This document shows, piece after piece, positions 12,444-51,606 of a stretch of 64,000 bases of DNA. This stretch comes from Chlorobiota bacterium. Lineage in GTDB: Bacteria; Bacteroidota; Ignavibacteria; Tepidaquicellales; OLB5. The position numbers and the translations under genes are program-made. Position 1 is the first letter of the stretch, and every line of letters starts with the position of its first letter. The stretch is from the NCBI GenBank assembly GCA_022616535.1, contig JAKEEM010000047.1:1563-65562 (forward strand). Reading direction: 5' to 3'. The notes beneath the pieces are model-generated. The model was given only the letters and a program-made list of their open reading frames with translations. It was not told the origin of the DNA and ran no database searches.

Positions 12444-14127
12444 TACATTAGCAGCTCATGAGGGAAGCTATTTAGAATACGAGGGCAGGCATAAGGGAAT
12501 CCTCGGCTGGGTTCTTTCAACCGACCATAAAAGAATCGGGTTGCTTTACCTGTCTGCAATCATGGTCTTCTTCTTTGTGGCAATGACGCTTGGCGTTATG
12601 ATGAGACTCGAGATGCTGACGCCGGGTGAAACTATTATGAAGCCGCAGACATATAACTCCATTTTTACGCTGCACGGAGTTATTATGGTTTTCTTATTCA
12701 TAATTCCGGCAATTCCGGCTGTTTTTGGCAATTTTATAATGCCAATCCAAATCGGCGCAAAAGACGTTGCCTTCCCGCGCCTTAACCTGTTTTCATGGTA
12801 TCTTTATATGACTGGCGCAACTCTGGCGATAATCTCTTTATTTACAGGCGGCGGAGCTGCAGATACAGGATGGACTTTTTACGTCCCATACAGCATCCGC
12901 TCGGCTCAAAACGTCTCTTTCACAACACTTGCGGCATTCGTACTGGGATTTTCAACAATCGTTACAGGATTAAATTTCATTGTGACAATTCACCGTATGC
13001 GTGCGCCGGGAATGACCTGGTTTCGTATGCCGCTTTTTGCATGGGGTTTGTATGCAACAAGCTGGATACAGGTTCTTGCCACACCTGTGATTGGCATTAC
13101 GCTGTTTTTAATTATTCTTGAAAGGCTGCTCGGAGTCGGAGTGTTTGACCCTGCACTCGGGGGCGACCCGATTTTATACCAGCATATGTTCTGGATTTAT
13201 TCCCATCCAGCGGTATATATTATGATTTTGCCCGCGATGGGTGTTGTTTCCGAGATTTTGCCCACGTTCGCTCGCAAGGATATATTCGGCTATAAGCAGA
13301 TTGCAATCTCATCGCTCGGCATTGCACTGATTGGCTACCTCGTATGGGGGCATCATATGTTTGTAAGCGGGATGAGCGATACGGCAAGAATAGTTTTCTC
13401 GCTCTTAACATTTCTTGTGGCAATACCAACAGGAGTAAAGATTTTTAATTGGGTGGCAACGCTTTATAAGGGCTCGATTAAGTTCAGCGCTCCGCTTTAT
13501 TATGTTTTAGCGTTTATATTTATTTTCTCAATCGGCGGTTTAACGGGGCTTGTTTTAGGAGCGCTTGCCACCGATATCCACGTTACCGATACTTATTTTG
13601 TCGTTGCTCATTTTCATTATGTAATGTTCGGCGGCATGGGCATTATGTTCTTTGCAACCATGCATTTCTGGTTTCCGAAGATGTTCGGTAAAATGTATAA
13701 TGAAAAAATTGCCGTGATTGCATGCACTATTATTATCGTGGGCTTTAACATTCTTTATTTCCCGATGTTTATTATGGGATATATGGGAATGCCGAGAAGA
13801 TATTATGACTATCTGCCCCATTTGCAGGGCTGGCACATACTATCGACGGTCGGCTCGTGGATTTTAGTTGCCGGAATTGTATTTATGTTCGGAAATCTGC
13901 TCTACGCTCTGCTCAAAGGGCCGAAAGCTGCACGCAATCCCTGGGGCGGAACAACGCTTGAATGGAGAGTTTCATCGCCTCCGACGGTCGAAAACTTCGA
14001 TGAAATTCCCGTTGTTACCGGCGGGCCGTATGTGCATGATAAGCCGACTTATATTATGCAACCGAGCAAAGAGCTTGTTCATGAAAACGGAGATAAACTT
14101 AAAGGGGAGACACTAAAAGCACATTGA
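12436..14127 (+). CDS. ctaD: heme-copper (aa3-type) cytochrome c oxidase subunit I
   Basis: 563 aa with 12 or more TM helices and diagnostic motifs MFWIYSHPAVYIMILP and WGHHMFVSG. Confidence 0.95.
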   Translation: MTDTLAAHEGSYLEYEGRHKGILGWVLSTDHKRIGLLYLSAIMVFFFVAMTLGVMMRLEMLTPGETIMKPQTYNSIFTLHGVIMVFLFIIPAIPAVFGNFIMPIQIGAKDVAFPRLNLFSWYLYMTGATLAIISLFTGGGAADTGWTFYVPYSIRSAQNVSFTTLAAFVLGFSTIVTGLNFIVTIHRMRAPGMTWFRMPLFAWGLYATSWIQVLATPVIGITLFLIILERLLGVGVFDPALGGDPILYQHMFWIYSHPAVYIMILPAMGVVSEILPTFARKDIFGYKQIAISSLGIALIGYLVWGHHMFVSGMSDTARIVFSLLTFLVAIPTGVKIFNWVATLYKGSIKFSAPLYYVLAFIFIFSIGGLTGLVLGALATDIHVTDTYFVVAHFHYVMFGGMGIMFFATMHFWFPKMFGKMYNEKIAVIACTIIIVGFNILYFPMFIMGYMGMPRRYYDYLPHLQGWHILSTVGSWILVAGIVFMFGNLLYALLKGPKAARNPWGGTTLEWRVSSPPTVENFDEIPVVTGGPYVHDKPTYIMQPSKELVHENGDKLKGETLKAH

Positions 14128-18198: not shown

Positions 18199-18211
18199 CG
18201 AGCAGGTATTT

Positions 18212-18257
18212 CTATTTTCTAACTTCATGTCCTGCTATTTTCTAACTTCATGTCCTG
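18212..18257. repeat. perfect 23-bp tandem duplication (CTATTTTCTAACTTCATGTCCTG x2)
   Basis: Read directly: 18212-18234 equals 18235-18257. It lies between the operon stop (18198) and the bfr start (18374). Confidence 0.95.
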
Positions 18258-18373
18258 AATTCTATTTAAGTGTAAAACCTTTATTTTTCATTTTTAATTG
18301 ATTTATCTCATATTATTTTAGCTTCTAAATACATAATTTTGTATGAACGCTTCAAATAAATCTTTAATCCGTT

Positions 18374-18872
18374 ATGCACGAAAAAAGCATTGAGTTATTA
18401 AACAAGGCCGTAGCTGACGAGCTTTCGGCAGTACACCAGTATATGTATTTTCATTTCCACTCAGATGACCAGGGATTTGACCTGCTTGCGGGACTTTTCA
18501 GGCGCACAGCAATTGAAGAAATGCTGCATGTTGAAAAAGCTCGCCGAAAGAATCCTTTTTCTAAAGGGCGATGTTGATATGTCACCCTCAGGGAAAGTCC
18601 AGAAGCTGACTAATGTTAAGGATATGCTTAGCTTGGCTCGGAAAATGGAAGAGGAAAGCGCGAAGGAGTACAACATCTGGGCAAATGAATGCGCTGCAAA
18701 CGCAGATGCAATATCAAAACAGCTCTTTGAGGGGCTTGTAGCCGATGAAGAAAGGCATTTTGACCAGTATGACACAGAGCTTGAAAATATTACACAGTTC
18801 GGTCCCAGTTATCTTGCGCTGCAATCCATAGAAAGAAGCAAGAACATTTCCTCTCCGCCCCAAGAGGGTTAA
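18374..18872 (+). pseudogene. bfr: bacterioferritin interrupted by a +1 frameshift in an A5 run (18534-18538)
   Basis: ORF 18374..18577 gives ...AIEEMLHVEK and then garbage. ORF 18465..18872 in the +1 frame continues LAERILFLKGDVDM...ADEERHFDQYDTELE. Deleting one A from GTTGAAAAAGCTC restores HVEKLAERILFL, which parallels the E. coli Bfr segment around ...ERILFLEG. Confidence 0.8.
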
Positions 18873-19249
18873 GCTTTAAAGGCAATCATCGATATTTCTA
18901 TATCAGCGTCTTTGGGTAAACGGGAGACCTCAATAGTTTCTCTTGCAGGGGGCTCAGCTGAAAAATACGAGCCGTAAACTTCGTTTACATCGCTGAATTT
19001 ACCCATATCCTTAATAAACAATGTGCTTTTAACCACACTTGTGAAATCCATCTCCGAAGCATTCAAAATAGCTTTTAAGTTTTCCATAACCTGCCTGGTT
19101 TGTTCCTTAATGCCTTCTGCCGCAATGTTACCTGTTGCGGGATTAATCGGTATTTGTCCGGATATGAATAGAAACCCTACTGCACTAACTGCCTGGCTGT
19201 AGGGACCAACGGGCTTGGGGGCTTTTTCAGTTGTAATTATTTTTTTCAT
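18869..19249 (-). CDS. ridA: RidA/YjgF-family reactive-intermediate deaminase
   Basis: 126 aa with TEKAPKPVGPYSQAV... and ARETIEVSRLPKDADIEI. Confidence 0.9.
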   Translation of the reverse strand: MKKIITTEKAPKPVGPYSQAVSAVGFLFISGQIPINPATGNIAAEGIKEQTRQVMENLKAILNASEMDFTSVVKSTLFIKDMGKFSDVNEVYGSYFSAEPPARETIEVSRLPKDADIEISMIAFKA

Positions 19250-19287
19250 AAAGTTATTTCTGTTTAATTGGTTTTTAACTCATACTT

Positions 19288-19986
19288 TTAATCAGTTTCG
19301 CTAAGAGCAAACTCTGCGGCCGCTCTTGCATGAATTAAAGTTGTATCGAAAACTTTTATTGTGCAGTCCTCCGGTTTTATAAGCATCGGAATTTCGGTGC
19401 AGCCGAAAATTACACCCTCAGCTCCTTGTTTAACCAAGCCGTCTATGATTTTAAGATATTTTTCCTTCGTTTCAAGCTTAAAAATATTTTTCCCAAGCTC
19501 GCTGAATATTGTTGAATGTATAAATTCACGTTCATCCTCGTTTGGGACTAAGGTTTTGATGTCGTGCTTTAGCAGCCTGTCCTTAAAAAAATCCTGTTCC
19601 ATTGTGAATTTTGTTCCGAGCAAACCTGCGGTTTTGATTTTATTTTTAACTATTTCTTTTGCAGTAACTTCCGCAATGTGTATTAAGGGTATGTTAATTT
19701 TCTGTTCGATAATATCTGCAACCATGTGAGGTGTATTTGCGCATAATATAATACACTCTGCTCCGGCATTTTTCAGTCGGAGTGAAATATCTGTCAGCAT
19801 TACCGCTATTTTCTCCAAACTTCCTGAATCAGCCGTCGGTTTGAATTCCTCGAAATTAAGCGAATATAAATATATCTTTGCTGAGTTCAACCCCCCAAGC
19901 CGTTTATTAATTTCCTGGTTAATGATTCTGTAATAATCAATGGTTGAAAGCCAGCTTGTTCCGCCGATTAGTCCGAGTGTTTTCAT
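19288..19986 (-). CDS. aspartate/glutamate racemase family protein
   Basis: MKTLGLIGGTSWLSTIDYYRIIN plus the two catalytic-Cys contexts (ILCANTPH, FGCTEIP). Confidence 0.8.
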   Translation of the reverse strand: MKTLGLIGGTSWLSTIDYYRIINQEINKRLGGLNSAKIYLYSLNFEEFKPTADSGSLEKIAVMLTDISLRLKNAGAECIILCANTPHMVADIIEQKINIPLIHIAEVTAKEIVKNKIKTAGLLGTKFTMEQDFFKDRLLKHDIKTLVPNEDEREFIHSTIFSELGKNIFKLETKEKYLKIIDGLVKQGAEGVIFGCTEIPMLIKPEDCTIKVFDTTLIHARAAAEFALSETD

Positions 19987-20921
19987 TTTTGAGCTTTGTT
20001 ATTTAATTCAGTAAACATTCTTTTATAAGTTGGAACTTCCGCATTCAGCTTCTCAGCGAGAGACACAACATACCCGGTCAATGAATTTAATTCGGTCTTT
20101 TTCCCTTTTTTAAAATCATCATGCATCGAGGAAGTTGTTTCTTGAGGCAGCGCTTCAAATCTCGAAAGAGTTTTTTCTATAATGCTGTCTTCAAAGGTTA
20201 TTCCAATTGCATCTGCAACAATTTTTAACTCCTCCAATAAGTTCCTTAAAAGTTTTCTTTTTTCAATGTGGTTTATTATTCCGCCTACGGGAGTATCAAG
20301 AAAGGAGGTGATAGTTGCAAGGGGAGATATAAAGAAAAATTTTCTCCACACCTCAAAATCAATGTTTTGGGATAATTGCGCATTTATACCGGCATTCTTA
20401 AAAATATTTTCAATCATTTTCAGTTTTTCTTTTGAAGCTGAATCCGAGCCGAAATAAGCTTTGCTGAGACTGCCTGTGACTTTAACAGTTCCGGGTGAGA
20501 TTAATCTTGAAACGATATAAATACACCCGTTCCAGACATCAGCAATAGGCAGAATTTTTTTTATTCTATCACGAGCATCGACCCCGTTTAAAAAAGGAAT
20601 GATAACTGTATTTTCACTAAAAACCGTTTTCCATAATTCAATGCTTCGCTGCAAATCATAGCTTTTAACCGTGCAGATTACTAAATCAAATGAATCCTGG
20701 GGACTTGGCGTGCTTTTTACAGATGGAGGGTGAACAATTTGCTCACCCTCATCAGTAACCAGCTTTAAACCAAGTGACTTAATTTGTTGTTGGTTTTCAC
20801 CCCTTGCGATAAAAATAATTTCTTTATCCGTCGAATTAAAATAACACCCAGCTAATTTGCCTCCAATGTAGCCGCCGACGCCCCCGATTCCAAGAACCGC
20901 TATTTTAAATTTCCCATCCAC
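19983..20921 (-). CDS. panE: 2-dehydropantoate 2-reductase (ketopantoate reductase family)
   Basis: Rossmann motif IAVLGIGGVGGYIGGKLA, 312 aa, ApbA/PanE-like layout. Confidence 0.7.
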   Translation of the reverse strand: MDGKFKIAVLGIGGVGGYIGGKLAGCYFNSTDKEIIFIARGENQQQIKSLGLKLVTDEGEQIVHPPSVKSTPSPQDSFDLVICTVKSYDLQRSIELWKTVFSENTVIIPFLNGVDARDRIKKILPIADVWNGCIYIVSRLISPGTVKVTGSLSKAYFGSDSASKEKLKMIENIFKNAGINAQLSQNIDFEVWRKFFFISPLATITSFLDTPVGGIINHIEKRKLLRNLLEELKIVADAIGITFEDSIIEKTLSRFEALPQETTSSMHDDFKKGKKTELNSLTGYVVSLAEKLNAEVPTYKRMFTELNNKAQK

Positions 20922-20964
20922 AAAAACTCATAATACAAAATTTCATAATTTAGACTTCATAATA

Positions 20965-22392
20965 CTAGACTTCATAATACAGGTGGAATTCATATGGATG
21001 CGGTCTGAGTGCCATTGGTTTAACTTCGTTTTCCATTTTGTAGCTTATCCAGGTTTGGATTAAGTCATCGGTGAAGACTCCCCCGAGTTTTAAGTATTCG
21101 TTATCGTTTGTTAGACTTTCAAGAGAAAGCTCAAGATTATCCGGCGCCTGGGGAATGTTCTTCAGCTCCTTATCGCTAAGATGGTAAATATCCATTTCCA
21201 TCGGCTTGCCCGGGTCGATTTTATTCATAATGCCGTCTATACCTGCCATAAGCATTGCAGCGAATGCAAAGTATGGGTTTGCCGTTCCGTCGGGACATCG
21301 GAATTCAACCCTCTTTGTCTTAGGATTTTCCGAATACATCGGAATTCTTACTGCAGCGCTCCTGTTGCGCTTTGAATATGCAAGGTTGACAGGAGCTTCA
21401 TAACCCGGCACAAGACGCTTGTATGAATTAGTCGTTGGATTTGTAAATGCTAAAAGCGAGGGGGCGTGTTTTAAAAGCCCCCCGATGTAATATAAAGCAG
21501 TCTGGCTTAAGCCGGCATACTCTTTGCCTGCAAAGAGCGGTTTGCTGTTTTGCCATAGACTCTGGTGGGTATGCATACCGCTTCCGTTATCGCCGAAAAT
21601 CGGCTTGGGCATAAACGTTGCGGTTTTGCCGAAGAGTCTTGCAGTGTTCTTTACGATATATTTAAACATCATCAAATTATCTGCACATTGAAGCATAGGT
21701 GAATATTTAACGTCAATTTCGCCCTGCCCGCCTGTTGCGACTTCATGGTGCTGGGTTTCAACCTCTATTCCCGCATCAATCAGGTGTTCTACCATAGCAT
21801 TGCGGACATCATTTGTTGAGTCAGCCGGCGGAACAGGGAAGTATCCTTCTTTCTGGCGGATTTTATGTCCGAGGTTTGCCTCAAGCTCAGAGCCGGTGTT
21901 CCAGAAGCCCTCGCGTGAATCGATTTTATACCAACTGCTGTATTCATTTACATTGTAGGCAACATGGTCTAAAATAAAAAACTCTGCCTCGGGCCCGAAA
22001 TAAGCATTATCCGCAATTTTGCTTTTTTTAAGAAATTCCTCAGCTTTTTTTACAACATATCTCGGATCCCTGCTGTAAGGCGCTTTACTTATGGGGTCGA
22101 TGATGTCACATATTAATGATAAGCTTTTAGTTTTGATAAAAGGGTCAACCCTTGCCGTTGACGGGTCGGGAATTATAAGCATGTCGGATTCGTTTATCGA
22201 CTGCCAGCCGCGGATTGAAGAGCCGTCGAAGCCAATGCCTTCACCGAACATTTTTTCCTCGAACTGGCTGACAGGTATGCTGAAATGCTGCCACTGCCCC
22301 GGCAAATCAGTAAAGCGGAAGTCAATCATTTTAACATCATGTTTTTTGATTAAATTAAAGACGTTTTTAACTGCCTGTGAACTTGATGCCAT
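20965..22392 (-). CDS. glnA: glutamine synthetase, type I
   Basis: 475 aa with FRFTDLPGQWQHF, GSGMHTHQSLW and NSYKRLVPGYEAP. Confidence 0.95.
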   Translation of the reverse strand: MASSSQAVKNVFNLIKKHDVKMIDFRFTDLPGQWQHFSIPVSQFEEKMFGEGIGFDGSSIRGWQSINESDMLIIPDPSTARVDPFIKTKSLSLICDIIDPISKAPYSRDPRYVVKKAEEFLKKSKIADNAYFGPEAEFFILDHVAYNVNEYSSWYKIDSREGFWNTGSELEANLGHKIRQKEGYFPVPPADSTNDVRNAMVEHLIDAGIEVETQHHEVATGGQGEIDVKYSPMLQCADNLMMFKYIVKNTARLFGKTATFMPKPIFGDNGSGMHTHQSLWQNSKPLFAGKEYAGLSQTALYYIGGLLKHAPSLLAFTNPTTNSYKRLVPGYEAPVNLAYSKRNRSAAVRIPMYSENPKTKRVEFRCPDGTANPYFAFAAMLMAGIDGIMNKIDPGKPMEMDIYHLSDKELKNIPQAPDNLELSLESLTNDNEYLKLGGVFTDDLIQTWISYKMENEVKPMALRPHPYEFHLYYEV

Positions 22393-22871
22393 TAATTTTC
22401 TCCTTTTGATTTATGTTTTAAATTAATTCCAAATGTTTCTTTATGCGACGATAAAACGATGGAGGTTCTTGTCGAACGGACGCCTTTCCATGATTGGATT
22501 TTAGCGAGCAGCTTTTCAAGGGTCGATGTGCTTTCAGTCCGGATTTTCAGAACATGCGAGCCGTCGCCGGTTATTGAGTGGCATTCGAGAATTTCGTGAT
22601 TTTGAAGCGCGTGCTGGACGAAATCTTTGTAATGGGTGGAAGAGTCGCTTATAACAAATATAAATGCGGTAATATCTTTGCCGAGTGACTTGTGGCTGAG
22701 CTTTGTTATGTAAGATTCGATAATTCCGTTTTCCTCAAGCTTGTTCATCCTGTCGGTAACCGAAGGAAGGGAGAGCTCGATTTTCTCGGCAATTTCGTTT
22801 CGCTTGATTCTTGAATTATTTTGCAGCAACTCAAGAATTTTAAAATCGATATCGTCTAAAATAAATTCCAC
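22392..22871 (-). CDS. Lrp/AsnC-family transcriptional regulator
   Basis: N-terminal HTH (LDDIDFKILELLQNNSRIKRNEIAEKIELSLPSVTDRMNKLEENGII) plus a RAM-like C-terminus. Its stop overlaps the glnA ATG (TAATG). Confidence 0.85.
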   Translation of the reverse strand: MEFILDDIDFKILELLQNNSRIKRNEIAEKIELSLPSVTDRMNKLEENGIIESYITKLSHKSLGKDITAFIFVISDSSTHYKDFVQHALQNHEILECHSITGDGSHVLKIRTESTSTLEKLLAKIQSWKGVRSTRTSIVLSSHKETFGINLKHKSKGEN

Positions 22872-22996
22872 TGCCCTAAGTTATTAAGGAATTATCCTTG
22901 TTATTCTTTAATTATTAAGGGAAAATATAAATTATATTTACAAATATAAGGCAAAGTGTTGAACTTGTCAATAGTCTTTAATAAGATATCCGCTGG

Positions 22997-23024
22997 AATA
23001 AAAAACCCCGCCGTTTTTGCGGGG
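22997..23024 (-). terminator. rho-independent terminator downstream of ndk
   Basis: Reverse strand reads CCCCGC-AAAAACG-GCGGGG followed by TTTTTTATT. It lies about 27 nt after the ndk stop. Confidence 0.7.
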
Positions 23025-23050
23025 CAATAAAAATTAAACTGTTTCAAACT

Positions 23051-23464
23051 TTAAACTAAGTCGGAATCCTTGAAGAAGTGGGCAATCTCTTTTGCTGCGT
23101 TTTCGGGTGAATCAGATCCGTGGACAATGTTTCGTTCAACTGACTCTGCATAAAGCTTTCGTATCGTGCCTTCCTCAGCATTGGCGGGATTGGTTGCTCC
23201 GATTAATTTGCGGAACTCGGCGACTGCATTTGGCTTTTCAAGGCACATTGGTATTACGGGTCCTGAGGTCATATAAGCAACCAAATCATTAAAAAACGGC
23301 CTTTCTTTATGGACTTCGTAGAATTTCTTTGCGGAGTCTTCCGTCAGTCTCAGAAGCTGCATACCTTTGATTTCAAACCCGGCGTCGATGATATGCTGTA
23401 TAACTTTGCCGTGTATTTTCTTTTCAATTGAGTCAGGTTTTAAAATAGCAAGTGTTCTTTCCAT
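23051..23464 (-). CDS. ndk: nucleoside diphosphate kinase
   Basis: 137 aa with MERTLAILKPD and NIVHGSDS (catalytic His). Confidence 0.95.
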   Translation of the reverse strand: MERTLAILKPDSIEKKIHGKVIQHIIDAGFEIKGMQLLRLTEDSAKKFYEVHKERPFFNDLVAYMTSGPVIPMCLEKPNAVAEFRKLIGATNPANAEEGTIRKLYAESVERNIVHGSDSPENAAKEIAHFFKDSDLV

Positions 23465-23613
23465 TTAAATTTTATAAATTAATTTTAGGCACAAAATTAA
23501 AATTTCTTTTTGATTTTTTAAATTCATAAAATAATTCCTTTGCTTTTATGCATATTGAATATCCTTTTTAAAGTTCACAATCATTTCTAATTTTGTTTTA
23601 AAACAACAATAAA

Positions 23614-24618
23614 TTGAGTGATTTAAGCCGATATTCAGAGTACTTACAACAGGAGCCGTATACAGTCCCTCCTCAGCCGGGAGTGAAAAAATCCCCCCGA
23701 ATCTGGTTAAATATTCTGCTTTTTTTATTTACTTTTTTGACCACGATTCAGGCGGGAGTGGCATGGCTTAACCGCGACCCTAATGATTTCAGCAATTTTT
23801 CACTCGGCTTAACTTATTCGGTTTTAATTTTAGCTTTCCTAACATTTCACGAGTTCGGTCACTATTTTGCAGCAAGGGTTCATAAAGTAAAAGTTACGCT
23901 TCCTTACTACATACCATTTCCATTTTTATTTTTAAATCCCTTTGGAACAATGGGTGCGGTCATAAGGATTAAGGAGCGAATCACTTCGCGAAAAGCTTTG
24001 TTCGATATAGGCATAGCTGGCCCGGTTGCAGGATTTGTGGCAGCAACTGCCATGCTCATATACGGAATGACAACCCTTCCTCCATTTGAATACATTTACA
24101 ATATCCACCCCGAATACCAGGTCACGGGAGTTCCAACAAGCGGTTTTTCTTTCGGTCCGAATTTATTGTATTGGGGCTTGGGCAAGCTTCTGGCTGATTC
24201 GCCTAACGTTTTTCTCCCGCCTATGAATGAAATGTATCACTATCCGTTCTTATGTGTCGGCTGGTTCGGCTTACTGGTAACGGCGCTCAATTTACTGCCT
24301 GTCGGGCAGCTTGACGGTGGGCATATTATTTACGCACTGTTCGCAAACAAAAGCAAATACATTGCAAGGACTTTCTTTGGCGTGATACTCGGAATGGGAC
24401 TGCTTGGACTTCTGCCTTTTTTGGGGATAACAACATTAGCTGAATACGGACTTTTGAACTGGCTCATATGGGCGGCTGTAATATTTTTCCTCATTAGAAT
24501 TGACCACCCGCCTTTTTATGACCCGGAACCTATTGGAACGTCAAGGATGCTTTGGGGAGGGTTTGCACTATTTATGTTTATAAGCTCTTTTACGCCTGTG
24601 CCGGTTACAAATCTCTAA
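23614..24618 (+). CDS. site-2 protease (M50) family membrane metalloprotease
   Basis: HEFGHYFAA (HExxH) inside a TM helix plus NLLPVGQLDGGH. Polytopic. TTG start. Confidence 0.8.
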   Translation: MSDLSRYSEYLQQEPYTVPPQPGVKKSPRIWLNILLFLFTFLTTIQAGVAWLNRDPNDFSNFSLGLTYSVLILAFLTFHEFGHYFAARVHKVKVTLPYYIPFPFLFLNPFGTMGAVIRIKERITSRKALFDIGIAGPVAGFVAATAMLIYGMTTLPPFEYIYNIHPEYQVTGVPTSGFSFGPNLLYWGLGKLLADSPNVFLPPMNEMYHYPFLCVGWFGLLVTALNLLPVGQLDGGHIIYALFANKSKYIARTFFGVILGMGLLGLLPFLGITTLAEYGLLNWLIWAAVIFFLIRIDHPPFYDPEPIGTSRMLWGGFALFMFISSFTPVPVTNL

Positions 24619-29411: not shown

Positions 29412-29451
29412 TTAACTGATTGGAATTACAAATAGAAATTCTGTCAAGTCA

Positions 29452-29482
29452 ATTTACCTCATTAGGCACTAATGAGGTAAAT
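29452..29482. repeat. perfect 14-bp inverted repeat ATTTACCTCATTAG-gca-CTAATGAGGTAAAT
   Basis: Read directly. The half-site CTAATGAGGT recurs at 29696-29710 and 48145-48159. It is flanked by the 8-bp direct repeat ACTGATTG (29415-29422 and 29502-29509). Confidence 0.9.
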
Positions 29483-29716
29483 GTTTATAAGGTTCATAAT
29501 CACTGATTGTTACGAAAGTTTTAAAAGATTTATCCCTCAAAAACACTCTTAACAAACTATCTTTAAAAACGATGAGCAATCAAAACATTTTTCCTTTTTT
29601 TTGTTATTTTCTTTTTGTTTTCCCCCTTCTTTTTTTTTCAATTCCTAATTATTAATTGCTAATTATTAATCGTTTACTGACTTTCACCTCATATATGCCT
29701 AATGAGGTGAATACAC

Positions 29717-29747
29717 TTGCACTCGCAATTTTTATATAGTAATTTTG
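29717..29747 (+). promoter_or_regulatory. candidate Bacteroidetes-type promoter (TTG-N20-TAATTTTG)
   Basis: TTG at 29717-29719 and TAATTTTG at 29740-29747 (TAnnTTTG consensus). The same 20-nt spacing occurs at the 48177/48200 locus. Confidence 0.4.
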
Positions 29748-29751
29748 CCAC

Positions 29752-30118
29752 GCTTGGTTCAACAGCGGCTGGAGGGCTGCTGCAGGTTACCAGTCCGGTA
29801 CTGTGTAAAAGCGGTTTCGGACGGGCGATGAGCCGTTCCGCCGCCTCTAAAAGGCGGGATTTGTACAACTGGCCAAGCTTTGGTTCCGGGAGTATATGAA
29901 AGTATAACCGGAGTGACGACCGGTAAAGTACAAGATTGAGGCTTCACCCTCTGTAATGCGTAGCAGGGGGAGTTGGAAGTGCGGGCTTTTGACTCACTGC
30001 CGCGGATTGTGCTTTATTGTCAAACAATCGAGTACGAGTCTGTTTACCAAAAAAGTAAGCGGCATGGTCAATTAAACCGACTTTCAGCCAATTTAAACCC
30101 ACCTGGGTGGTATTTTTT
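29752..30118 (+). ncRNA. candidate approximately 365-nt structured non-coding RNA of unknown family
   Basis: GC-rich, hairpin-dense stretch in a 970-bp gene-free gap. It starts just after the promoter-like box and ends with a short GC hairpin (30097-30110) plus T6. It contains only junk ORFs of 69 aa or fewer. No hallmark motifs of RNase P, tmRNA or SRP RNA. Confidence 0.3.
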
Positions 30119-30241
30119 AAAATGTCAAATTTCAAAGCTCAAATGTCAAATTAAAAATCAAATATCAAATAGTAAAGCGTAAAAAGGCAGAAAGCAAAAA
30201 AACAAAAAAAAGTAACGGCGAGGACACCTCTCCAGAAAAAT

Positions 30242-30262
30242 GACCCGCCAGCTGGCAGGGTC
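30242..30262. repeat. GC-rich palindrome GACCCGCCAGCTGGCAGGGTC (member of the CCGCCAGC...CAGGC family)
   Basis: Read directly. Nearby are AACCCCGTAGGGGTT (30298-30312), GCCAAGGCTTTGGC (30345-30358) and GGCAGGCAGGC (30356-30366). Confidence 0.8.
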
Positions 30263-30391
30263 AAATATTTATAGAAAAAAAACGGAGATAGAAACACAAC
30301 CCCGTAGGGGTTGAATAAATCCTAAATCGGCAATCCCTGACTGCGCCAAGGCTTTGGCAGGCAGGCAAAATACAAAATTGAATTGAAGGGT

Positions 30392-31084
30392 TTACAAAAG
30401 CTTTTTCAAAAGGGCTAAATCCTGTGGAGAGGTTATTTTAATGTTGTCCGTTGGACCCTCGATAATCTTAACTCGGTAACCAACATATTCAACAAGGGAA
30501 GACTCGTCGGTAAAGTCATTTATCCGCCTGCATTTTTTATAGGCTCTTTCAAGCACTTTGTGCCTGAAAACCTGCGGGGTCTGAACTGTCCACAGATTTT
30601 CTCTGTCAACGGTCTGGTTCACATAACCTTTTTTATCGCGCTTTACGGTCTCGCTGACTTTCGTTCCTACGATTACTTCCCCGTATTTATAAGCTTGTAT
30701 TAGAACTGAATCAACAAGCTTTGAGTTAATATTGGGTCTTGCAGCATCGTGGATTATTACCAAATCATTGCTGCCTGAGACTTCTATCTGCATAAATGCA
30801 TTTTTAACTGATTCAAAGCGTGTTTTGCCGCCTTCAGCAAGTCTGGTAAGTTTTGTAATTTTATTTTTAGCTGCAAGCTTGTGTATTAATTCGAAATATT
30901 CCCTTTTTGCTGAAATAATTATTTCATCAACATTTCTGCATTTCTGAAATGCAATCAGTGAATATAATATGACAGGTTTTCCGGATAAATTTAAAAACTG
31001 TTTGGGTAGCTTGGTGCCTGAGAACTTGTTAAATCTGCTTCCGGAACCTGCAGCAGTTATTATCGCAAAAATTTTTCTGTTCAT
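30392..31084 (-). CDS. ispD: 2-C-methyl-D-erythritol 4-phosphate cytidylyltransferase
   Basis: IFAIITAAGSGSRF and VIIHDAARP. I prefer the internal ATG at 31084 (MNRKIF...) to the track start at 31132. Confidence 0.9.
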   Translation of the reverse strand: MNRKIFAIITAAGSGSRFNKFSGTKLPKQFLNLSGKPVILYSLIAFQKCRNVDEIIISAKREYFELIHKLAAKNKITKLTRLAEGGKTRFESVKNAFMQIEVSGSNDLVIIHDAARPNINSKLVDSVLIQAYKYGEVIVGTKVSETVKRDKKGYVNQTVDRENLWTVQTPQVFRHKVLERAYKKCRRINDFTDESSLVEYVGYRVKIIEGPTDNIKITSPQDLALLKKLL

Positions 31085-45092: not shown

Positions 45093-45104
45093 TTGCTTTT
45101 TGTC

Positions 45105-45143
45105 ATTCCCGCCAGCCTGCAGCAGGCAGGCGAAGGCGGGAAT
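45105..45143. repeat. GC-rich palindromic repeat ATTCCCGCC-AGCCTGCAGCAGGCAGGCGAA-GGCGGGAAT
   Basis: Read directly. It shares CCGCCAGCCTG...CAGGCAGGC with 38170-38224 and GCCTGCCTGCTGCAGGC with 48230-48250. Confidence 0.85.
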
Positions 45144-45202
45144 CCATATTGATTAAAAACTCAAAAATAACAAAATGGGAATTTAGAAGCAGGGGGAAAA
45201 AA

Positions 45203-46066
45203 TTAGTTACCTAATAAAATTACGAAACAATCAGTTTCGTATCTCTTTTTACCTATATTTTTATGATTGAAATCAAATGATATGTGGAATGGTTCTTGCA
45301 AATTTGCTCTATTGATAGCTTCCTGAATTTCTTCTTCTGAAACTTCATCTTTTAAATATACAACCAATAACCTAGGATCAGAACCAAACCTACCTTCATC
45401 TTGATAAGTATATAAAAATATTGCGACTTTATCTGGTGATTCTAATGCAACTTTTTTCCAACCACTTCCATAGTGTTTGATAAATTCTTTAGTGGGGCTT
45501 TTAGCGACTTTTTGATCATATGATATGCCATTTACAAAAAAATCTACACTCCCTGTGTGTTTCAAAGTTGGTATGATATTTTCATTTTTCTCAAATATCA
45601 ATGTTTCTAAATAATCATTTCTAATGGTGTTTAATTCTTTCATTCGTCTGTATTTTACAGCGGCCTTTTTTACTCTAGTATCCTTGATCATACCACTATC
45701 GGACAAACTATTTATCCTTTGGACTAACTCATCAAATTTTCCTTGACTACATGGCCACTCGATATCACCCAAGCCTAAATCCTTCCATTCTTTTTTTAAA
45801 ACCTTAACCACATTTATACATTCTTTCCCTTTTTTATACTTATCCGAGCTTTTGAAAAGTTCTCTTATGATTTCCCTAGCTTTCTCATAATCCCAATATT
45901 TAGAAACTAAATCATAATAATAGTCGGCTTTTGCTTTTTTTAAATGTGCGATTTCTGGAATACTAATATTTTTATTTAAACGAATAAGGTATTTTGAAAT
46001 CGTTTTCTTGTTTCCTAATATCCTTTTAACAACCTGTGCCTCAATACTATTAGTTATATTAATCAT
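45203..46066 (-). CDS. putative type II restriction endonuclease (partner of the adjacent methyltransferase)
   Basis: 287 aa with a 4-nt overlap with the MTase gene. Candidate PD-(D/E)xK site in GSVDFFVNGISYDQKV. No other recognisable domain. The region is visibly AT-richer than its neighbours. Confidence 0.45.
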   Translation of the reverse strand: MINITNSIEAQVVKRILGNKKTISKYLIRLNKNISIPEIAHLKKAKADYYYDLVSKYWDYEKAREIIRELFKSSDKYKKGKECINVVKVLKKEWKDLGLGDIEWPCSQGKFDELVQRINSLSDSGMIKDTRVKKAAVKYRRMKELNTIRNDYLETLIFEKNENIIPTLKHTGSVDFFVNGISYDQKVAKSPTKEFIKHYGSGWKKVALESPDKVAIFLYTYQDEGRFGSDPRLLVVYLKDEVSEEEIQEAINRANLQEPFHISFDFNHKNIGKKRYETDCFVILLGN

Positions 46067-47154
46067 GTATGTTTTTTAAACAGAAAGATATACTCGTGTT
46101 TAAAAATATAAAATCCACCAACAAGTGCTCTGTATCTCCACAATTCTTTTTGGTTCATTTTTCCCTTAGTTTCTTCAAAGTTCTTTACGACTATACTCTT
46201 TAATTTATAACCTTTACTCATTACTAAGTCCATTGTTTTAAAACCCAATGGAATCCAGTCACCCTTTGAATATTTATCACCAATTACAACAACTAAATAT
46301 CTTCCTTTTTCTAAGATATTATAAGTATTCTCAATGACTTTAGCAAACAAACTTAAAAAATCATCAACACTTGATGCATTTGATAAATCTCTTACATCAT
46401 CACTAAATTTTATTATATCCCAATAAGGTGGATGCATAATAATTAATTGTACTTTATCAATTCCTAATTTTTTTAATTCGTCATCTAAACTAATACTTGT
46501 ACTGTCATTAATTAAAATTTCCTGAATGGTGCTGTGTGTAAAAAGTTCTCTTTCTTTATCAATGTTATCCTGTGCTATTTGAGCTATTTCTTTTTGTAAT
46601 TCAACACCAATTCCATTCCTTCCCAATCTTTGGCATTCAATTAGGGTGGTACCACTTCCCAAAAATGTATCCAACACCCATTCATTTCTCTTAGTATATC
46701 TTTTTATAAATTGTTGCGGTATCTGTGGTATGAAGTTCCCCCAATATGATGCAGTATGAACCCCAGAATTATCTCTTTTATCCATAATCCACAAACTATC
46801 CGTAATTATATCATTATACTCTTTCCATTGATTTAGATTAAGATCATTTATTTTACTAGTTTTTATTTCTGATAACCCTTTTTTAAGTCTATTAACATAA
46901 TATTTTGTCCGTTCAATTGTTTTCGTTTCTAATATTTGGTGTAATTCTTGCTCAATATATTTACTACTCACGGAAATTGTTCCTCCATTGGTTCCAATAT
47001 TTAAAAAACCTAGTTTATCTTGTTTAATACCTTTTAGGTTTTCCTGTATAATCTTAATATTACTCTTAATTTCATTAAGATCATCTTTTTGAGCAATTTT
47101 TTCTAATGCTTGAAGTATTTTATTCTGATTTATTATCATTGAAGTGTGCTGCAA
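46063..47154 (-). CDS. DNA methyltransferase (N6-adenine or N4-cytosine), with motif I preceding motif IV
   Basis: VLDTFLGSGTT (SAM motif I), then about 65 aa later IIMHPPYWDI ((D/N/S/H)PPY motif IV). There is an approximately 160-aa N-terminal extension. Confidence 0.8.
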   Translation of the reverse strand: MQHTSMIINQNKILQALEKIAQKDDLNEIKSNIKIIQENLKGIKQDKLGFLNIGTNGGTISVSSKYIEQELHQILETKTIERTKYYVNRLKKGLSEIKTSKINDLNLNQWKEYNDIITDSLWIMDKRDNSGVHTASYWGNFIPQIPQQFIKRYTKRNEWVLDTFLGSGTTLIECQRLGRNGIGVELQKEIAQIAQDNIDKERELFTHSTIQEILINDSTSISLDDELKKLGIDKVQLIIMHPPYWDIIKFSDDVRDLSNASSVDDFLSLFAKVIENTYNILEKGRYLVVVIGDKYSKGDWIPLGFKTMDLVMSKGYKLKSIVVKNFEETKGKMNQKELWRYRALVGGFYIFKHEYIFLFKKHT

Positions 47155-47237
47155 ATTTAATAAATTAAGTGTTTAAAAAAACCTATAAAGCACTTACAAT
47201 TTTAATACTCTAAAAACTTCATTATATTTGAAAATAT

Positions 47238-48017
47238 ATGCGCCTTCATTTGTTTGAGTTTGAGGATTTGTCGTGGTTTCCCGATGTGATAAGGCGATGC
47301 CAGACCGATTATCTCCATTTCGTAATCAGCAAGTTTGAAATTTACAAACCTGCCGTTCCACTTGTAAAAGAAGTGATTGATAAAACGGGAACGAATGAAA
47401 TTATTGACTTATGCTCAGGCGGAGGCGGCGGAACGGATGTGTTTCATAAAAATCCCGAAGAGATTACCGGAAAACAAATCAAAATGACACTAAGCGATAA
47501 ATATCCTAACCTGACTGCTTTCGAACAAATTAAAACAAGCACAGGCGGGAAAGTGGACTATATAAAAGAATCTGTTGATGCTTTGAATGTTCCGCAGAAC
47601 ATAAAAGCTATGAGAACATTATTTTCATCGTTTCATCACTTTAAGCCTGAAGATGCTAAGTCAATTTTGAAAAGTGCTGTTACAAATGAAATCCCGATTG
47701 CTGTATTTGAAGGCGCGGAAAAAAGTATTTTAAATTTCCTTGGAATTCTTTTGCTGACTCCCCTGACTTTCATAATCATTACACCATTTATCAAGCCGTT
47801 TCGGCTCAGCAGGATTTTCTTTACTTATCTGATTCCGTTAATACCCCTCACAACTGTGTGGGACGGGCTTGTGTCAGTTCTTAGAATGTATAGTCCTAAT
47901 GAAATGCTTAAAATGGCAATGGAAGTTGACTCCATTAACTACAAATGGAGCTCAGGCAAGGTCCGGGGAAAAATAGGAAATGCGGTTTTGTATTTGGTGG
48001 GTTATCCTGTAAATTAA
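47238..48017 (+). CDS. SAM-methyltransferase-like protein with C-terminal TM segments (hypothetical)
   Basis: EIIDLCSGGGGG resembles SAM motif I. Two hydrophobic helices lie near residues 165-205. TATATTTG box at 47223-47230. Confidence 0.45.
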   Translation: MRLHLFEFEDLSWFPDVIRRCQTDYLHFVISKFEIYKPAVPLVKEVIDKTGTNEIIDLCSGGGGGTDVFHKNPEEITGKQIKMTLSDKYPNLTAFEQIKTSTGGKVDYIKESVDALNVPQNIKAMRTLFSSFHHFKPEDAKSILKSAVTNEIPIAVFEGAEKSILNFLGILLLTPLTFIIITPFIKPFRLSRIFFTYLIPLIPLTTVWDGLVSVLRMYSPNEMLKMAMEVDSINYKWSSGKVRGKIGNAVLYLVGYPVN

Positions 48018-48069
48018 TTAAACAATAAATGGAATTTCTGAAAATACTTTCTCTTATCGTGCAGTTCGG
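47955..48069 (+). repeat. direct repeat copy 1 (last 20 codons of the 47238 gene, the spacer, and a 14-codon 5' fragment of the 48593 gene)
   Basis: CGGTTTTGTATTTGGTGGGTTATCCTGTAAATTAATT matches 48540-48576 at 34/37 positions. ATGGAATTTCTGAAAATAC...TTCGG matches 48593-48633 at 34/41. The truncated ORF MEFLKILSLIVQFG(YTIIN*) spans 48029-48088. Confidence 0.85.
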
Positions 48070-48511
48070 ATATACAATTATTAATTAATAATTACTAATT
48101 AGTAATTGATTTTGTTAACCGAAAATCGGATTTTACTCTATATGTGCCTAATGAGGTGAGAGTTGTTAAACAGACCTTGACAAATAAATTATAAAGTGTT
48201 AAATTTACCTTGTTACTGTAGGGCAACCCGCCTGCCTGCTGCAGGCAGGCCGGGTCGCACCCTGCATTACAGTGTCCTTCGGCTGCGCTCTCCGAAGGAA
48301 TCCTACGGACTGGATTAAAAAATGGAAAAAATGTCAAAATTTCATCACGGTGAAAAACATGCTAAAAACTTACAAAAAAAGAGACCCTTCGTTTCACTTA
48401 GAGGTTGCCAACTTTACATAATGTCGGATTTGAGACACGGTTTTTTTTTGCCGTGTTATTTTTGCTCAATACGCCGGATTTTCGCACTGCCAATTTGTCC
48501 GTGATAATTTT
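48070..48511 (+). other. 442-bp gene-free insert between the direct repeats: AT-rich palindromes, TGCCTAATGAGGTGA box, promoter-like TTG-N20-TAAATTTA, three GC hairpins, and an intrinsic terminator
   Basis: Box at 48145-48159. TTG at 48177-48179 and TAAATTTA at 48200-48207. Hairpins at 48227-48254, 48275-48299 and 48299-48316. Terminator ACACGG-T9G-CCGTGT plus TATTTTTG at 48435-48463. Confidence 0.5.
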
Positions 48512-48633
48512 GGCGAAAACGGAGGAAAAACGAGGAATTCGGTTTTGTATTTAGTAGGTTATCCTGTAAGTTAATTTTGCTATTTTGCAATTATGGAACT
48601 TCTGAAAATACTCTATTTAATCGTTCAATTCGG
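48512..48633 (+). repeat. direct repeat copy 2 (orphan 3' fragment GENGGKTRNSVLYLVGYPVS*, the spacer, and the true start of the 48593 gene)
   Basis: See copy 1. The orphan fragment parallels GKVRGKIGNAVLYLVGYPVN* of the intact gene and ends with a stop at 48572-48574. Confidence 0.85.
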
Positions 48634-49978: not shown

Positions 49979-50320
49979 ATGAAAGACTATCTTTTATTAT
50001 TCAGAGGCGGCGAAATGCAGGGCCTCAGCGAGGAAGAAAGAAACAAACATTTAGCCAAGTGGGGGCAGTGGATTGGCTCGCTTTCCAAGGAAGGCAAATT
50101 TGCCGGGGGCGACCCGCTCGGAGTAGAAGCGCGGGTAATTTCAGGCAAGAAAATGGCGGTTACAGACGGACCCTATGCCGAATCGAAGGAAATGGTGGGT
50201 GGCTACCTGATTATTAAGGCGGCTGACCTTAACTCCGCAACCGAAATTACCAAAGAATGCCCGATTTATGAAGTTGACGACGTCACAGAAATAAGGGAAA
50301 TCCATCACATGGATTTTTGA
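49979..50320 (+). CDS. YCII-related / DGPF-domain protein (paralog)
   Basis: VTDGPYAESKEMVGGY. I prefer the ATG at 49979 (MKDYLLLFRGG, parallel to MKDFIFLFRS of the first copy) over the track start at 49907. Confidence 0.8.
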   Translation: MKDYLLLFRGGEMQGLSEEERNKHLAKWGQWIGSLSKEGKFAGGDPLGVEARVISGKKMAVTDGPYAESKEMVGGYLIIKAADLNSATEITKECPIYEVDDVTEIREIHHMDF

Positions 50321-51606
50321 TTTTGAATGTAACCAAGAAAGATAGTTATGAAAATCTTGCAAGCCATCTTTTCCGCAATGAGGCGGGAAAGATGGTTTCT
50401 GTTTTAACCAGAATATTCGGGCTGCCTCGCATCGAAATCGCCGAGGACATCGTGCAGGATACATTCCTTAAAGCACTTGATGAATGGGGATTTAACAACA
50501 TTCCCCAAAATCCGCAGGCGTGGCTTTACAAAGTTGCCAAAAACAAAACCATCGATTATCTCCGCCACTGGAAACATGTGCAGGATTACGAATCCGACAT
50601 TAGTCACCTGCTTAAATCAGAATGGACGCTCTCGGCATCTGTAAACAATATGTTTTTGGACAATGAGATTCAGGACAGCCAGCTTAGAATGATATTTACA
50701 TCCTGCCACCCCTTGCTGCCGCAGGAATCGCAAATTGCACTCACTTTGAAAACTCTCTGCGGATTCAGCATAAAAGAAATCTCACGCGCCCTTTTGACAA
50801 CTGGGGCAAATGTAAACAAAAGACTGTTCCGCGCGAAACAAAAATTGAGGGACGAGCATTTAAAATTTGAAATACCTATGGGCGACGAGCTGGCAAAACG
50901 GCTTGATTCAGTTTACAGGGTTATTTATTTAATTTTCAATGAGGGTTACTCGTCAACTGAATCGGAAAAAATTATAAGAAAGGATTTATGCGCTGAAGCT
51001 CTGCGCCTGTGCCAGCTTCTTTCAGAACACAAAATCGGAGATAATCCCAAAACTTACGCGCTTTTTTCGCTTATGTGCTTTCACTCCTCGCGATTCAATG
51101 CAAGAATTGACGATAAGGGATATGTAATTCTGTTAAAGGAGCAGGATAGGAAGCTTTGGAACAAGGCGTTAATTGCTAAAGGATTTGAATATTTATCGAA
51201 ATCATCGTACGGTAATGAGCTTTCAGAGTATCACCTTGAGGCGGGAATTGCATCTTACCACTTATCAGCGAAAAGCTTGGATAAGACAAACTGGAATAGC
51301 ATACTGAAGCTGTATGAGATTCTCGAAAAAATCAATCCTTCTCCCGTTACAATTCTGAACAAAGCAATCGTTGTATCTCAAATTAGCGGTCCCCAAGCCG
51401 CATTGGAAGAAGTTCTGAAAATCAAAACTCTTGAAAAATATTATTTATACCATACAACACTGGCGGAGCTTTATAAAGATCTGGATCAAATACAAAAAGC
51501 TAAAACACACTTAGAAGAGGCGTTAAAGCTAACAAACTCTGCCGCAGAAATATCGTTGATTAAAAAAAGAATTGAGGAGTTAAAATTTAACCGACGCTTT
51601 CTGTGA
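50317..51606 (+). CDS. ECF sigma factor with a long C-terminal TPR-like extension (ECF42-type)
   Basis: Sigma region 2 (DIVQDTFLKALDEW...WLYKVAKNKTIDYLR), region 4 (ALTLKTLCGFSIKEISRALLTTGANVNKRLFRAKQKL), and an approximately 220-aa helical C-terminus. TTG start overlapping the upstream stop. Confidence 0.8.
   Translation: MILNVTKKDSYENLASHLFRNEAGKMVSVLTRIFGLPRIEIAEDIVQDTFLKALDEWGFNNIPQNPQAWLYKVAKNKTIDYLRHWKHVQDYESDISHLLKSEWTLSASVNNMFLDNEIQDSQLRMIFTSCHPLLPQESQIALTLKTLCGFSIKEISRALLTTGANVNKRLFRAKQKLRDEHLKFEIPMGDELAKRLDSVYRVIYLIFNEGYSSTESEKIIRKDLCAEALRLCQLLSEHKIGDNPKTYALFSLMCFHSSRFNARIDDKGYVILLKEQDRKLWNKALIAKGFEYLSKSSYGNELSEYHLEAGIASYHLSAKSLDKTNWNSILKLYEILEKINPSPVTILNKAIVVSQISGPQAALEEVLKIKTLEKYYLYHTTLAELYKDLDQIQKAKTHLEEALKLTNSAAEISLIKKRIEELKFNRRFL

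Follow-up and report, generated by a model that had tools for sequence, protein, structure and literature searches.

Two gene-free loci of a Chlorobi/Ignavibacteria genome as probable non-coding RNA transcription units sharing a promoter module

Structure of the two gene-free loci

The window (the whole stretch of 64,000 nt of DNA that was analysed) carries two gene-free loci, each with an AT-rich upstream part, called the shell here, which is followed by a GC-rich payload. Locus 1 has a 118-aa ORF on one side and the convergent ispD-queA-eno genes on the other. Locus 2 lies between two genes, A and B; gene A is called a class I SAM-dependent methyltransferase in the sources and gave no Pfam match. 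Related loci found on metagenome contigs are designated by L numbers. The features of locus 1 are the following:

29440–29512, minus strand: inverted relic of the shell (shell profile, nhmmer E = 4e-8), without a -7 box and without a payload
29452–29482: perfect 14-bp palindrome in the relic, which includes a one-mismatch version of the box; TTG follows after 6 nt
29541–29747, plus strand: class I 5' shell, 69-81% identical over 184-244 nt to L018, L023 and L024, and 79% over 118 nt to L020
29546–29554, plus strand: block CTCTTAACA
29577–29592, plus strand: CAATCAAAACATTTTT, next to which a T-rich tract follows
29645–29670, plus strand: AT-rich repeats, CTAATTATTAAT at 29645-29656 and 29659-29670
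29683–29711, plus strand: hairpin TTCACCTCAT-N9-ATGAGGTGAA, with the box inside
29691–29710, plus strand: 20-mer box
29717–29719, plus strand: predicted promoter, -33 TTG
29740–29747, plus strand: predicted promoter, -7 TAATTTTG
29748–30118, plus strand: R1, predicted structured ncRNA of ~370 nt ending in an intrinsic terminator (stem 30098-30110 plus T run, as seen in the sequence itself)
30119–30212, plus strand: A-rich 3' tract
30120–30180, plus strand: three ~20-nt repeats of AAATGTCAAAT
30191–30212, plus strand: AAAGCAAAAAAACAAAAAAAAG
30242–30313, minus strand: class I 3' shell, two predicted minus-strand terminators (terminator scan)
30242–30262, minus strand: terminator T2
30264–30278: conserved spacer AATATTTATAGAAAA between the terminators
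30297–30313, minus strand: terminator T1

The features of locus 2, all on the plus strand, are listed below:

47983–48069: copy 1 of the target duplication; gene A has its native end here (stop codon 48015-48017), and after the spacer comes a pseudo-start of gene B (48029-48069)
48070–48207: class II shell, 82% identical to L019 over 108 nt
48075–48108: AT-rich palindromic block CAATTATTAATTAATAATTACTAATTAGTAATTG
48117–48129: hairpin AACCGAAAATCGG
48140–48159: 20-mer box
48177–48179: predicted promoter, -33 TTG
48200–48207: predicted promoter, -7 TAAATTTA
48208–48465: predicted R4 transcript, based on fold z, terminator, the 3' module (nhmmer E = 1e-32) and alignment with L019, L017 and L026
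48227–48254: REP-like palindrome
48275–48299: hairpin
48328–48344: AAAATGTCAAAATTTCA
48408–48439: conserved block CCAACTTTACATAATGTCGGATTTGAGACACG
48434–48463: terminator
48466–48540: right end of the R4 unit
48511–48537: last part of the right end, GGCGAAAACGGAGGAAAAACGAGGA
48541–48633: copy 2 of the target duplication; a pseudo 3' end of gene A and the spacer come first, and gene B then starts natively (ATG at 48593)

The shared upstream shell

In the preliminary description the two loci were regarded as paralogous shells around swapped cores. For the upstream half the paralogy was confirmed, the best local alignment of the gene-free regions scoring 51 as against 23.6±2.8 (maximum 38) in 300 dinucleotide shuffles. 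The downstream half of the proposed similarity proved weak, and the downstream regions of the two loci fail to align. The two shells are 73% identical over 71 nt, or 84% over 32 nt. The AT-rich repeats were found in both loci where they had been reported, and the two blocks align ungapped at 28 of 34 positions. The 15-mer TGCCTAATGAGGTGA, noted before as following an ATAT-containing partial palindrome, is exact at 29696-29710 and 48145-48159 and really belongs to a shared box of 20 nt, ATATRTGCCTAATGAGGTGA, i.e. ATAT[A/G]TGCCTAATGAGGTGA. The box of locus 1 is an imperfect palindrome with arms arranged 10-9-10; the left arm is degenerate and unconserved in the class II units described below. 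The relic next to locus 1 contains the 15-mer with one mismatch on the minus strand (29454-29468).

The promoter-like motif that had been seen at equal spacing in both loci was likewise verified, as TTG-N20-TAATTTTG at 29717-29747 and TTG-N20-TAAATTTA at 48177-48207. Its general form, TTG-N20-TAnnTTT(G/A), is of the Bacteroidota type, and the N20 spacer is kept in nine of nine loci when the metagenomic copies are included. The distance from the end of the box to the -33 TTG is 6 nt in seven of these loci and 16 nt in two, a difference of one helical turn. Across the window the strict motif TTG-N18-21-TAnnTTTG is not enriched (7 matches vs 7.5 expected).

The modules that had been proposed further downstream did not fare equally well. 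AAAATGTCAAA(A)TTTCA is present in both loci (30119-30135 and 48328-48344), but two matches are also obtained in 4 of 100 shuffles; it is conserved in the class II relatives, and in locus 1 it forms part of the local threefold ~20-nt repeat. The A-rich tract had to be dropped as a shared module, being low-complexity sequence in regions that cannot be aligned, and so had the 12-bp inverted repeat thought to bracket locus 1, which reflects low-complexity T-rich and A-rich flanks. Loci 1 and 2 have ~100 nt in common, namely the AT-rich block, the box and the promoter, and their 3' parts are unrelated.

Further copies of the shell and the two unit classes

The box was searched as an exact 20-mer in metagenomes and in 185,579 species genomes. 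Nine matches were obtained in the metagenomes, seven of them intergenic, all from the JGI sample Ga0326597, and two in GC-rich coding sequence; both matches in the species genomes were in coding sequence and were judged to be due to chance. Each of the seven intergenic copies consists of the box, a TTG 6 or 16 nt further on, N20, TAnnTTT(G/A) and a GC-rich payload without ORF. In the four matches within coding sequence, which serve as an internal control, no promoter was found. The identity of the box among the relatives is partly there by construction, since the scan demanded an exact 20-mer match. The shell profile (nhmmer) recovered nine of nine loci at E<=6e-17, with E-values of 1e-17 to 1e-24, and the relic too. 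The similarity noted in the window is therefore clearly not confined to it: besides the two loci and the relic in the window, there is a third copy of the R4 family on the same contig and there are the seven copies in the related metagenome. In IMG/VR neither the box nor the R4 or R1 block had a match.

Since the flank of L020 is 81-83% identical to positions 18295-23640 of the window, the sample Ga0326597 holds a close relative. A unit stands upstream of bfr in L020, and the window has no unit at that place. Proteins that are near-identical to those of the window are named "Chlorobi bacterium", and the relatives Ignavibacteria.

The preliminary description had assumed one type of element with exchangeable cores. 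This has to be abandoned, as there are two classes of unit which share ~100 nt and differ in their 3' parts. Class I comprises locus 1, L018, L020, L023 and L024, and class II comprises locus 2, L019, L017 and L021. The contigs L024 and L017 overlap by 173 nt, 172 of which are identical, therefore the two classes coexist in one genome. The units measure ~470-775 nt and have no conserved ORF.

In class I the 5' shell of ~210 nt runs from CTCTTAACAC through CAATCAAAACATTTTT, the T-rich tract, the AT-rich repeats, the box and the promoter to GCAGCGCTTGGTT, and is followed by a predicted RNA of 215-420 nt. The 3' shell consists of an A-rich periodic tract and then two minus-strand terminators with AATATTTATAGA(A)AA between them; the terminator stems vary among the copies and the arrangement is kept. 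The layout seen in locus 1 is repeated in L018 and L017 with different stem sequences, and the AAAGCAAAAAAACAA block of the A-rich tract of locus 1 is common to L017. The upstream part of class II is made of GGATTTTACTCT followed by the box. Its 5' region is variable, with REP-like GC hairpins invading it. In the 3' half, which has the form AAAAATGTYAAAATTTCA ... AACTTTACATAATRYCGGATTTGRRACACG ... GAAAACGGAGGAA, sequence is conserved and structure is not: conserved RNA structure in the 3' module of R4 is essentially absent (-3 kcal/mol).

The payload RNAs

The GC-rich cores fold better than their shuffles, with z = -3.8 in locus 1 and -3.9 in locus 2, as the preliminary description would lead one to expect. 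Their GC content is 0.51 and 0.57, respectively, against 0.26-0.27 in the shells; over all loci the payloads have 0.43-0.57 and the shells 0.26-0.37. The folding z of the payloads lies between -3.3 and -4.5, with the exception of L023 at -1.55. Tabulation of the payloads gave GC-rich, distinct sequences that nhmmer does not relate to each other; those of L018 (z = -4.5) and L020 (z = -3.3) are unrelated to R1 and to one another. The idea of swapped cores is apt in part: the shell stands on at least four unrelated structured payloads, but much of the core of locus 2 (48227-48254) turned out to be a REP-like palindrome. This palindrome, CGCCTGCCTGCTGCAGGCAGGC, occurs at 45110 and 48229 of the window, in the shell of L023, and at 13700 and 13987 of L026, next to the third R4 copy.

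Two full homologues of R1 were found, one in L023 (6950-7367) and one across L024 and L017, in different gene contexts. In the alignment of these three sequences, from which the structure itself was taken, pairing covers 89% of the cells, and compensatory change is seen in 26 of the 100 pairs, compared with 4-9 in slid controls; none of 500 shuffles reached 26. Rfam 15 at the gathering threshold gave no match in the window or in the seven related loci. At permissive E-values there was nothing for the two window loci at E<=10 and nothing relevant at E<=1, and ARAGORN found no tRNA or tmRNA in the window or the seven related loci. The payloads are thus predicted to be separate RNA families, R1 in locus 1, R4 in locus 2 and two more in the relative.

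In the six loci where it could be resolved, window locus 1 included, the next gene is convergent or has a promoter of its own. Therefore the units would be stand-alone RNA genes and not leaders.

Locus 2 as an insertion into the A|B junction

Locus 2 is clearly a recent insertion, because the A|B site is empty in relatives and each flank of the unit carries a copy of the target. The gap between A and B measures 13-15 nt at four loci from relatives (L006-L009; gene A 75-80% identical), and at a fifth (the P0002 contig, for which the gene table was used; gene A 84% identical) it is 17 nt. One of the four, L007, comes from the same metagenome as the additional shell copies. The direct repeat flanking the unit is imperfect, ~87-105 nt long with ~85% identity, and represents the A|B junction itself. 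The third R4-family copy (L026), which is on the window's contig 1.4 kb outside the window, has a promoter of its own and no box. The right end of locus 2 recurs in this copy and in L019. Since the third copy ends likewise, GGCGAAAACGGAGGAAAAAYGAGGA can be taken as the right end of the element, and thus the truly duplicated target is ~47983-48069 and 48541-48633, ~87 nt. At its end, the GGCGAAAACGGAGGAAAAACGAGGA part of the unit resembles gene A, where the insertion took place, in 15 of 18 positions.

L019 is a second case of insertion, with a 48-nt duplication that covers the 3' end of a carboxyltransferase gene. Long flanking target duplications are found at window locus 2 and L019 only; flanking direct repeats were also searched for around the class I loci and none was found. 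Two other origins of the repeated junction were considered. Genes A and B are not tandem paralogues (BLASTP E = 1.3), and a TR/VR pair of a diversity-generating retroelement was rejected, the mismatches being of all types and the repeat spanning the intergenic spacer. No reverse transcriptase is present among the genes neighbouring the loci.

The dispersed shell family with its four or more payloads, together with the insertion at locus 2, bears out the earlier opinion that these regions are not ordinary intergenic DNA.

The neighbourhood of locus 1

Relatives of the ispD side (IspD 66-78% identical) have a convergent gene 50-85 nt after ispD, and where a relative has retained the left-hand genes (676 aa, 116 aa), a Na/Ca exchanger gene comes next. 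Since ispD and the left-hand genes have other neighbours in the relatives, locus 1 is at a synteny breakpoint, and it too is lineage-specific. The cumulative GC skew reaches its maximum at this breakpoint. Short-read contigs stop at 30250 and 30287, inside the 3' shell of locus 1, and a short-read contig also breaks 30 nt before the third R4 copy.

Discussion

Both loci are probably autonomous, insulated ncRNA transcription units, each with a copy of a single propagated promoter module. This module would comprise AT-rich repeats of 13-14 nt, the 20-nt box and TTG-N20-TAnnTTT(G/A), ~100-200 bases altogether. The invariant promoter geometry, the variable sequence of the spacer and the helix-phased distance of 6 or 16 nt argue for the box as a cis-regulatory site. 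Together with the AT-rich repeats it might act as an activator or UP-type site, by which the RNAs would be co-expressed. Promoter use and the ends of the RNAs are predicted from the sequence: transcription would start just past the -7 box and stop at the intrinsic terminator, and in class I the two terminators of the opposite strand would shield the RNA gene from its convergent neighbour. The third R4 copy has its own promoter and no box; therefore shell and payload are separable, and the box would not be needed for the R4 RNA.

The units would multiply as DNA, being duplicated and inserted with no signature of a classical transposase. At locus 2 a piece of ~470 nt would have entered the tight A|B junction, with ~87 nt of target sequence being duplicated. 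The mechanism would be template switching or homology-assisted illegitimate recombination, which suits the long duplications and the homeology between the end of the element and the target better than transposition does. The conservation of ~210 nt, seemingly non-functional spacers included, at differing sites suggests active mobility rather than a static regulon.

A more far-reaching interpretation, which we put forward tentatively and hold to be less than likely, is that the units represent an undescribed, ORF-free mobile "ncRNA expression cassette", in which an exchangeable structured RNA is combined with terminators of its own and with a portable promoter module that carries an activator box. 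Such a cassette would be inserted within and between Ignavibacteria genomes by a homology-assisted, templated process that duplicates tens of target nucleotides and leaves both neighbour genes intact, and the at least four new RNA families (R1-R4) would have a common biology.

Alternatively, the units could be non-autonomous mobile elements resembling MITEs, IMEX or pdif modules, in which the box would be the binding or crossover site of a trans-acting recombinase and the promoter would be cargo. We consider this possible but rather improbable. The imperfect palindrome of the box would also suit a recombinase core site, its arms being inverted around a spacer of ~9 nt. An inverted relic copy lies 230 nt away, and locus 1 marks a synteny breakpoint as well as the peak of the cumulative GC skew. 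Moreover, the presence of the units varies between close relatives and short-read contigs break at their edges (30250, 30287 and near the third R4 copy). The position of the box speaks against a crossover site, however, since it is at least 70 nt inside the locus-2 insertion, away from the edge, and at a fixed distance of 6 or 16 nt from the promoter. Class II does not preserve the left arm of the palindrome, and the left ends differ between the two insertions that have target duplications. Real terminal inverted repeats are absent, and the imperfect duplications of 48 and ~87 nt are unlike known transposase signatures; the search for a canonical dif-like site came out empty, as did that for viral copies in IMG/VR.

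A role of the GC-rich regions as cis-regulatory leaders, or as small protein genes, belonging to the neighbouring genes is very unlikely. The locus-2 unit is directed at gene B and contains a 60-aa ORF (48322-48504), with a start of the MSKF / MLKF / MFKF type in three copies. The MSKF ORF was nevertheless rejected as coding, because the conserved 3' block is in different frames from copy to copy and the lengths of the indels are not divisible by three. A terminator lies ahead of gene B, relatives have B directly behind A without any inserted sequence, and in the six resolvable loci the next gene is convergent or self-promoted. Finally, a chance resemblance of AT-rich or promoter-context sequence, or an artefact of MAG assembly, is of negligible probability and for the upstream shell is already refuted: an exact 15-mer is not rare alone within 64 kb, and AAAATGTCAAA(A)TTTCA, the A-rich tract and the 12-bp inverted repeat are of low complexity, but the alignment score is ~10 sd above the shuffles, seven independent JGI contigs have the same box and promoter, and the E-values of the shell profile are 1e-17 to 1e-24.

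If the reading as propagated ncRNA transcription units holds, the Ignavibacteria/Chlorobi group, which is poorly studied and uncultured, has at least four unannotated families of structured RNA of 215-420 nt, and one recognisable promoter module drives all the R1-R4 families. The 20-mer with TTG-N20-TAnnTTTG would offer a search handle for RNA genes missed by Rfam, and the box itself a concrete handle for seeking the regulator of the candidate regulon. The units would also be a clean natural case of a promoter module copied onto RNA genes instead of protein genes. The insertion at locus 2, which spares both flanking genes by means of a long target duplication, bears on the wiring of new transcription units in compact bacterial genomes.

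Comparison with known systems

Like REP/REPIN sequences, the palindrome of locus 2 is short, GC-rich and dispersed in intergenic DNA, but the likeness applies to 48227-48254 only, ~28 nt of the locus-2 core, and leaves the shell and the RNA families unexplained.

IMEX elements and the pdif modules of Acinetobacter are Xer-dependent, and consist of modules with variable content bounded by palindromic sites of ~28 nt arranged 11-6-11 with XerC and XerD arms. The present units resemble them in having a palindromic site with variable content, and locus 1 is at a GC-skew switch. Unlike in those systems, there is one box per unit, which is internal, and its left arm is unconserved. A search with the dif-type consensus, the GC-skew maximum included, yielded matches at chance level only.

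The Correia elements of Neisseria, which are promoter-bearing MITEs, and the pneumococcal BOX elements are small, dispersed, modular repeats without ORF that may carry promoters. The units described here are likewise small, ORF-free, dispersed in multiple copies, modular and promoter-carrying, and the term cassette-like used in the preliminary description is appropriate in part. The term MITE-like is not, as the hallmarks are absent: the T-rich and A-rich arms, 72-84% complementary over 25-32 nt, lie inside the unit and are not terminal inverted repeats, and neither a short target duplication of fixed length nor constant ends are present. The payloads, of 215-420 nt, structured and mutually distinct, also set the units apart from Correia and BOX elements.

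In sRNA regulons, such as the GacA box of RsmX/Y/Z and the LuxO sites of Qrr1-5, several ncRNA genes have one site of ~18 nt at a fixed distance from the promoter. Here too, different predicted ncRNA genes have one site at a fixed, helix-phased promoter distance. The conservation, however, extends over ~100-210 nt, beyond a site of ~18 nt, and the loci change position between close relatives, with one demonstrable insertion; a motif common to the RNAs was not found.

Putative mobile promoters are homologous promoter stretches of 50-150 nt with non-homologous downstream units and unrelated flanks; their families were defined upstream of protein-coding genes, with a criterion of at least 50 nt at >=80% identity in promoter regions (PMC3488235). 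With their homology over 100-210 nt, spacers included, on unrelated payloads and at non-syntenic sites, the shells resemble this "promoter propagation" (PMC3488235). L020 and L023 are 90% identical over 118 nt, L018 and L023 81% over 136 nt, and L020 and L024 86% over 145 nt, all with different payloads; the pair of the window, with 73% over 71 nt, is under the 80%-over-50-nt criterion (PMC3488235). Two properties distinguish the present family from putative mobile promoters (PMC3488235): every downstream unit is a predicted structured ncRNA, and a conserved 3' shell with terminators is part of the module. The themes of promoter propagation and of ncRNA families in multiple copies are known, and the present loci are a variant of them that adds several putative RNA families absent from Rfam.

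Repeats and the third R4 copy

A third copy of R4, the RNA family of locus 2, was found outside the window on the same contig (L026), about 1.4-1.7 kb to the left of window position 1.

L026 13784-14035, minus strand: third R4 copy

This copy has its own promoter, TTG-N21-TATATTTG, without the 20-mer box that lies upstream of the promoter in both loci, and it is bracketed in L026 by two REP-like palindromes. The palindrome family concerned, CGCCTGCCTGCTGCAGGCAGGC, has dispersed copies in the window at 45110-45132 and 48227-48254, and further copies were observed in the promoter-bearing shell of the related metagenome contig L023 and in L026 at 13700-13726 and 13987-14013. The intergenic DNA of related metagenome contigs is filled with other GC-rich hairpin repeats, such as AAGCTCCCCTCACGTTCTTGGGAGGGG and GGGGTGGTGC...CAGACCACCCC.

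Independent short-read (Logan) contigs, derived from the same strain or from a 98%-identical strain, were also compared. All four stop at the edges of the RNA units, two of them (L002 and L003) at window position 30250, another (L025) at 30287, and L027 about 30 nt short of the third R4 copy, as would be expected if these sequences were repeated or polymorphic in the population.

Genomic surroundings of the two loci

In the whole-window profile the cumulative GC skew reaches its maximum at about 30.0-30.4 kb (region 29900-30500) and falls steadily afterwards. At the maximum the genes converge in orientation and the synteny with the relatives is lost. This point, which coincides with locus 1, may be a terminus of replication or else the junction of a rearrangement; a search for the dif-type consensus gave matches at chance level only.

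Right beside locus 2, window positions 45100-47200 form a low-GC island (GC 0.24-0.32), in which two genes are located.

45203-46066: 287-aa gene without known function
46063-47154: N6/N4 DNA methylase

The island sits as an insert between an NTP-transferase gene and gene A, one of the neighbours flanking locus 2. These two genes directly adjoin each other in the relatives' loci L006 and L007, and in L008 and L009 the same spot is occupied by a SIR2_2-containing insert. The site has the appearance of a hotspot at which defence or restriction-modification genes are inserted. A sigma factor gene follows two YCII-domain genes at a distance of 2 kb from locus 2.

50317-51606: ECF-type sigma factor with DUF6596/TPR extension

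Resemblances of the shell motifs

Upstream of the bacterioferritin-like gene the window carries a tandem repeat of about 20 nt, CTATTTTCTAACTTCATGTC x2 (18200-18300). The bfr promoter region, …TAATTGATTTATCTCATATTATTT.AGCTTC.AAAT.CATAATTTTGTAT, is conserved between the window and L020, a unit-bearing related metagenome contig, where it is preceded by a shell-like AT-rich AATTATTAATTACTAATTAC block.

The box, situated upstream of the inferred transcription start, has a conserved half, TAATGAGGTGA (29696-29710 and 48145-48159), that differs by a single base from the perfect extended Shine-Dalgarno sequence, TAAGGAGGTGA. The left hairpin arm, TCACCTCAT, is anti-Shine-Dalgarno-like, and a similar sequence, AAATGAGGAGTGA, occurs where the R4 unit ends on its right side.
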